This document shows, piece by piece, positions 21,070 through 21,339 of a stretch of DNA of 64,000 nucleotides. Each line of letters opens with the position of its first letter. Position 1 is the first letter of the stretch. The notes beneath the pieces were generated by a model. That model had not been told where the DNA came from. It worked only from the letters and a program-made list of their open reading frames with translations, and did no database searches. The stretch covers positions 104,656,001-104,720,000 of the forward strand of contig OX597820.1 in assembly GCA_951406725.2 (NCBI GenBank), in the 5' to 3' direction. This DNA comes from Octopus vulgaris. Lineage: Eukaryota. The position numbers and the translations under genes were made by a program.

Positions 21070-21339
21070 TTAGTGCGGGTTAAGATTAGTGTCTCTGTCC
21101 TTATCGATACCCGAGGCGATGAGACATTTGTCGTAGTATTCCTGGTCGCAAAAGCAACAGTACTCTATTGCAGTGTTCTTGTATAAGGAACCACATTCAC
21201 CACAAACCCAGGATTTCTGCAATAAGAGTTCATCATTTATTTTACACGCTTTACATGGAGTATGGGCCGCCAACGACAGTTTGATTGGGTGAATAACAAC
21301 TAGCAAAAGTGCTAGTGTGATGGCTGTAGTAATTCTCAT
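21070..21339 (-). CDS. Small secreted cysteine-rich peptide precursor (89 aa, 8 Cys), possibly neurohormone-like
   Basis: AAAATG start; hydrophobic signal-like N-terminus MRITTAITLALLLVVIHPIKLSLA; mature region C-x2-C-x13-C-x2-C-x11-CC-x-C-x7-C; non-repetitive and uninterrupted; polypyrimidine acceptor ...TCTTTTAATAG at 21516 upstream. Confidence 0.75.
   Translation of the reverse strand: MRITTAITLALLLVVIHPIKLSLAAHTPCKACKINDELLLQKSWVCGECGSLYKNTAIEYCCFCDQEYYDKCLIASGIDKDRDTNLNPH

Follow-up and report, generated by a model that had tools for sequence, protein, structure and literature searches.

We investigated a short open reading frame (ORF) in a 64,000-nt stretch of Octopus vulgaris DNA (hereafter the window) and asked to which peptide family its cysteine-rich product belongs. 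A preliminary description had likened the core of this product to the pattern of the hyperglycemic hormone of crustaceans (CHH) and of ion transport peptide (ITP) and had considered a molluscan version notable in itself. That view is outdated, because Koch et al. presented a four-cysteine peptide, "CHH DREP", as the first member of the CHH family from spiralians in 2023 (PMC10501145). The question is how the octopus peptide relates to CHH DREP, to the arthropod hormones, and to the other families proposed for it.

Gene structure and transcripts

Direct translation placed an 89-aa ORF and its stop codon at window 21070–21339 on the minus strand. The gene extent first proposed, which was this ORF, held as the core of the gene, and we extended it by an in-frame ATG at 21357, giving a 95-aa CDS, and by a non-coding first exon. 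The additional ATG was conserved in three of three octopods, and both named orthologues begin there. The start context is weak at ATG 21357, and ATG 21339 has an A at −3. Cysteine and residue numbers of the octopus peptide (P0001) are counted from ATG 21339 (89 aa). The features, in window coordinates, are as follows.

27087..27094, minus strand: TATA-like box TATATAAA, read from the sequence, some 30 nt upstream of the probable start site; putative promoter element
27029..27060, minus strand: non-coding exon 1, 5′ end approximate, ending at the donor G|GTAAGT; from the contig loose ends in runs X1, X15, and X17
27035..27052, minus strand: 5-codon upstream ORF (uORF) in exon 1, read from the sequence
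21516..27028, minus strand: 5′UTR intron (5,513 nt) with GT-AG ends and a pyrimidine tract
20860..21515, minus strand: exon 2, with the remaining 5′UTR, the entire CDS, and the 3′UTR; 3′ end below 20860; from contigs
21070..21357, minus strand: CDS of 95 aa (ATG 21357) or 89 aa (ATG 21339), without an intron
21268..21339, minus strand: predicted signal peptide, residues 1–24, from hydropathy and the −3/−1 rule by eye
21073..21267, minus strand: predicted 65-aa mature peptide with eight cysteines, from translation; cysteines invariant in relatives
21124..21204, minus strand: core C46–C72, aligning with CHH DREP and weakly with a crab CHH-like peptide
20466..20471, minus strand: candidate polyadenylation signal AATAAA, the nearest downstream, by sequence

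The uORF and the two in-frame ATGs, as read from the sequence, make translational control possible.

Of the 24 sequencing runs listed, none of which is recorded as RNA, 20 contained half or more of the words sampled. In each of the four runs examined, one contig spanned 20860–21516 and then broke off there. The loose end was identical in X1, X15, and X17 (three runs from three studies; that of X9 was not included among the ends displayed) and mapped once within the window, at 27030, 5.5 kb upstream, which places exon 1. Because the contigs carry a spliced join, they provide RNA evidence, although the run type is a guess. The window corresponds to C7:104,656,001–104,720,000 of the 2.8-Gb genome, and in a search of that genome the gene was the one real match among seven obtained at E values up to 10. 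The transcript support and the orthologues with conserved cysteines on which the preliminary description had made its proposal depend were both found, as a splice junction in three runs and as octopod proteins with 89% and 84% identity. These results indicate that the locus is a spliced, conserved, single-copy gene.

The X17 sequence (organism C) differed from the window CDS at three positions (21220, 21243, and 21313), corresponding to two residue changes (L40F and K33E) and one silent change; no cysteine was affected, and the differences are too few for selection to be judged. A short interspersed-repeat fragment lies in the 3′UTR at window 20927–20987, where many unrelated contigs align at 90–95%.

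The eight-cysteine peptide and its relatives

Translation and hydropathy confirmed the peptide as first outlined, with a signal-like N-terminus, a mature region of about 65 aa, and eight cysteines at residues 29, 32, 46, 49, 61, 62, 64, and 72 of the 89 (spacing 2, 13, 2, 11, 0, 1, 7); the segment cited in the preliminary description is present as well. The best 9-mer of the N-terminal hydrophobic core (Kyte-Doolittle 3.24) covers residues 8–16 and is followed by a small-residue site; a hydrophobic N-terminal core was also evident by hydropathy in six of six proteins checked. The peptide is likely secreted, with a predicted cut after Ala24, and the predicted mature part of 65 aa retains all eight cysteines, with a mass of approximately 7.4 kDa and a pI of 5.1.

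The orthologues of O. bimaculoides (89% identical) and Argonauta hians (84%), which carry either no annotation or a wrong label, were the two proteins kept among nine candidates from a word-based search, and in the alignment their differences avoid the cysteine positions. A HMMER search gave 12 matches, four of which were family members; the other eight were left out, five after inspection and three without inspection. Further members were an unnamed Logan protein (51%), Dreissena polymorpha LOC127842708, and unnamed ENA proteins. The frame C-x2-C-x13/16-C-x2-C-x10/11-CC-x-C-x7-C was common to all 11 domains from eight proteins, and the eight cysteines were invariant across the nine proteins aligned. 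An identical frame was recognized by eye in a protein of the scaphopod Antalis entalis, which is given in the supplementary FASTA of PMC6425005 under a header without a family name. Judged by these sequences, the family covers at least three mollusc classes (cephalopods, bivalve, and scaphopod). The bivalve and scaphopod members exclude a lineage-specific venom or pheromone peptide, one of the alternatives first offered, as far as lineage specificity is concerned.

Three of the ENA proteins (P0010, P0016, and P0017) contain two tandem eight-cysteine domains behind one signal peptide, with no dibasic site between them. Hormone-like C-terminal ends were found in two relatives, GKR in P0005 and GK in P0011; such amidation-type ends would fit regulated secretion. 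The eight-cysteine proteins matched no Pfam or Atlas family in the family searches. No named family with this frame was found in the literature covered, which included few subscription papers and, among supplements, those available for PMC8398477, PMC10036341, and PMC6425005; an earlier listing, for instance in the FASTA files of PMC10501145, is possible.

Relation to CHH DREP and to the arthropod hormones

Lophotrochozoan CHH-like peptides are described as usually containing four cysteines (PMC13311285), and the CHH-like peptide of Conus textile is described as single-copy (PMC12621736). CHH DREP has two of the three CHH disulfide loops, and its link to CHH rests mainly on predicted structure, together with a phase-2 intron; the O. 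bimaculoides precursor (KOF87272.1) is printed in the same paper (PMC10501145). When a motif was derived from the DREP precursor as printed, it matched once in 2.8 Gb, on the contig that also carries the eight-cysteine gene (C7:104,871,410, plus strand), and its reversed control gave no match in the genome. The DREP orthologue is intact (C7:104,869,172–104,871,523, plus strand) and consists of two coding exons separated by a phase-2 intron; exon 2 is identical by eye to the published exon, and exon 1 lies approximately 2.1 kb upstream, across the 2.1-kb intron. The DREP gene and the eight-cysteine gene are arranged head to head about 186 kb apart, with a chance of such nearness of 1.3e-4, as observed in one genome. 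The eight-cysteine gene is not the DREP orthologue but a distinct gene. Among the long ORFs listed between the two, TE-like sequences and simple repeats were found, and short exons may remain.

The eight-cysteine family HMM scored 29.4 bits against DREP exon 2, and an HMM from which the octopod proteins and P0005 were omitted, leaving Dreissena and ENA domains only, scored 28.4 bits. None of 2000 cysteine-fixed shuffles reached these values (maxima 15.1 and 12.8, respectively). Of the 14,884 ORFs in 464 kb, DREP gave the best non-self match (E 2.9e-6), and the next one scored 11.3 bits. By arithmetic, the E value of DREP scales to only about 0.02 over the whole genome. No third paralogue was present among these 14,884 ORFs, and the genome-wide search gave no further copy. 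HHalign of the eight-cysteine family against DREP returned a probability of 91.8 (E 7.5e-7), and the four cysteines of DREP aligned with C46, C49, C62, and C72. When P0001 and P0010 were each used alone to search the whole genome, the DREP locus was not among the matches listed. We regard kinship between the eight-cysteine family and DREP as very probable.

The two peptides share their overall layout, in which the signal peptide is directly followed by the cysteine-rich peptide, and a core of the form C-x2-C-G-x-x-Y...C...K-C-x-x-A, at 29–33% identity. In contrast, DREP is defined by four cysteines (C-x2-C-x11-C-x11-C), whereas the octopus peptide has eight and therefore lies outside that definition, with an additional N-terminal CxxC and the CC-x-C cluster; its last spacing is x9 from C62 instead of x11. 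The signal and mature exons of DREP are separated by the phase-2 intron described for it (PMC10501145), a hallmark that the intronless eight-cysteine CDS of octopus lacks.

In regard to the arthropod hormones, none of six proteins, including P0001 and DREP, matched the PF01147 (Crust_neurohorm) family, and nothing above the cut-off was detected over the whole genome. Since DREP, an accepted member, also gives no match, this Pfam test does not discriminate among spiralian members. Eight matches at E values up to 10 were obtained when PDB sequences were searched with a profile. These were led by PHD fingers (E 0.009–0.017), and a crab hyperglycemic-hormone-like peptide, 5xs1, was the fifth (E 0.38, non-significant). 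When DREP was added to the profile, 5xs1 (E 0.9) and the CHH-derived Ta1a, 2ksl (E 1.1), were among 15 matches, both non-significant. PHD zinc fingers are intracellular proteins with C4-H-C3 ligands; where the alignment places the His, the eight-cysteine family has Tyr or Phe, and its precursors carry signal-like N-termini, so that this assignment was rejected.

In the non-significant 5xs1 alignment (E 0.38), C46, C49, C62, C64, and C72 fell in order on C23, C26, C39, C43, and C52. CHH has the disulfides 7–43, 23–39, and 26–52, with a first cysteine spacing of x15. The first CHH cysteine falls outside the aligned part of 5xs1; with C64 at the position of C43, the partner corresponding to C7 could be C29 or C32, which would restore the bridge that DREP lacks. 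The octopus peptide, predicted to be secreted, would resemble the secreted CHH/MIH/ITP peptides in mature size (60–80 aa in CHH/MIH/ITP; 65 aa predicted in octopus), and C49-x12-C62 has the spacing of C26-x12-C39 in CHH (5xs1). The octopus peptide differs from the canonical six-cysteine frame of CHH (x15, x2, x12, x3, x8) in its eight cysteines, in the x1 and x7 of its C-terminal half in place of x3 and x8, and in having neither the Pfam match nor the phase-2 intron. AlphaFold models from three and nine sequences were of low confidence (pLDDT 50.3 and 52.8) and contained strands instead of helices; fold searches with these low-confidence models gave nothing useful. The CHH-like link originally proposed is partly upheld, in an indirect way, through the significant similarity and close linkage to DREP, joined by a non-significant direct alignment with the crab peptide; it gains no PF01147 match.

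Interpretation and alternatives

Because the peptide both resembles DREP and adjoins it at about 186 kb, it likely represents another branch of the CHH family, a second one that has been overlooked. Accordingly worded, the new element is most likely a second, eight-cysteine branch of the molluscan CHH-like peptides and not molluscan CHH as such. It falls outside the strict six-cysteine definition of CHH and the four-cysteine definition of DREP, and relatedness to both, with a similar way of working, is most likely. Its relation to DREP is likely that of an old tandem paralogue. The whole reading, that of an undescribed eight-cysteine paralogue of molluscan CHH DREP that is secreted, adopts the CHH-type fold, and acts as a hormone, is on balance probable.

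The similarity to DREP, which withstands cysteine-fixed shuffling (0/2000) and the removal of octopod sequences, and the independent linkage at 186 kb both speak against a separate small disulfide-rich secreted family of non-CHH fold, for example one of defence or the extracellular matrix, and against kin of DREP that no longer have the CHH fold or no longer serve as hormones. We consider this explanation unlikely, while noting that it accommodates the family searches without a Pfam or Atlas match, the strand-rich models (low-confidence), the octopus CDS without a phase-2 intron, the two-domain P0010, P0016, and P0017, which are unlike CHH precursors, and the non-significant direct CHH matches. 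An octopod salivary or venom "doppelganger", mimicking the CHH of crustacean prey and copied beside the parent neuropeptide gene, is distinctly unlikely and is retained because the Conus CHH doppelgangers show a similar layout. CHH-like peptides are described as recruited to venom many times (PMC13311285), and the Conus CHH/ELH doppelgangers are local copies near the parent CHH neuropeptide gene, with a new, separate 5′UTR exon and the whole CDS in exon 2, as here (PMC12621736). The Conus copies, however, are described as having arisen recently, expanded in tandem, and as occurring only in snail-hunting cones (PMC12621736), whereas the octopus family is single-copy here and occurs in three mollusc classes. 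The absence of the stretch from 4 of the 24 runs listed would suit a gland product but does not prove that expression is restricted to a tissue; searches of 464 kb and of the whole genome revealed no additional copy, and octopod identity is 84–89% with changes away from the cysteines. The family has members in a bivalve and a scaphopod, groups that are not known to have a venom gland.

A relation to the Lymnaea sodium-influx-stimulating peptide (SIS), which had also been suggested, was not borne out by the frame. SIS (P42579) is likewise molluscan, secreted, and cysteine-rich, it contains CxxC...CC-x9-C, and it is made by cells regulating ion and water balance, so that a divergent relative acting on ion uptake could be imagined. 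By eye, the SIS sequence given in PMC8172996 has six cysteines in other spacings (C-x9-C-x2-C-x14-CC-x9-C), lacks the N-terminal CxxC, a cysteine after the CC pair, and the G-x-x-Y after CxxC, and is otherwise little alike, which makes this explanation very improbable. Given its CxxC...CC-x9-C, SIS may itself be a remote CHH-type peptide. Two further families were rejected: the frame of two Reishia clionins (C-x3-C-x2-C...) differs from the octopus frame, and molluscan insulin-like peptides have B and A domains with an A chain of CxCC-x3-C-x8-C, as described in PMC5996578, as opposed to CC-x-C-x7-C in one domain.

If the peptide is a CHH-type paralogue of DREP, its precursor would enter the secretory pathway, and cleavage after Ala24 would release the 65-aa product, which would adopt a helical bundle of the CHH type containing four disulfides. 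The bridges C46–C62 and C49–C72 would be the two retained by DREP, C64 bridged to C29 or C32 would represent the C7–C43 bridge of CHH that is absent from DREP, and the fourth would join C61 to the remaining N-terminal cysteine. Released from neurosecretory or gland cells, the peptide might have as its receptor either a membrane guanylyl cyclase or, alternatively, a GPCR, as CHH and ITP have; for Drosophila and Bombyx, ITP is reported to act on a GPCR or a receptor guanylyl cyclase (PMC13311285). By analogy, its role would most plausibly lie in ion, water, or metabolic control.

A wider proposal is possible but doubtful. The eight-cysteine family may be the spiralian CHH branch that retains all three ancestral CHH/ITP disulfides plus a fourth, with two CHH-type hormones in the mollusc ancestor from one tandem duplication and DREP as the reduced sister; of the two, the eight-cysteine peptide would then correspond more closely to arthropod CHH/ITP, and it could be considered as the ligand of an orphan receptor guanylyl cyclase in molluscs. 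A conserved eight-cysteine paralogue beside DREP, if correct, would double the molluscan CHH complement and bridge the gap in cysteine number between the four-cysteine spiralian and six-cysteine arthropod peptides. To the published DREP-CHH link, founded chiefly on predicted structure, the present analysis adds evidence from sequence and linkage. It also puts forward a specific peptide, encoded by an expressed gene, as a candidate for a hormone of ion, water, or metabolic control in cephalopods, which can be synthesized and assayed.

The preliminary description had called the ORF the only non-TE coding sequence recognized in the window. In a spot check of the long ORFs of the window, 7 of the 12 scanned matched TE-type Pfam families and 5 matched nothing. 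An LTR-retrotransposon-type element at window 12776–16392 (minus strand) has two ORFs, one for gag with a zinc knuckle and one of 715 aa for pol with RT, RNase H, an integrase zinc domain, and DUF7047. A fragmented Helitron-like element (Helitron_like_N, PIF1, and Pif1_2B) lies at 40014–45313 (minus strand). Two related LINE-type RT fragments, broken by simple repeats, occupy 29674–31911 and 58786–59850 (minus strand), the former containing RVT_1 and zf-RVT.
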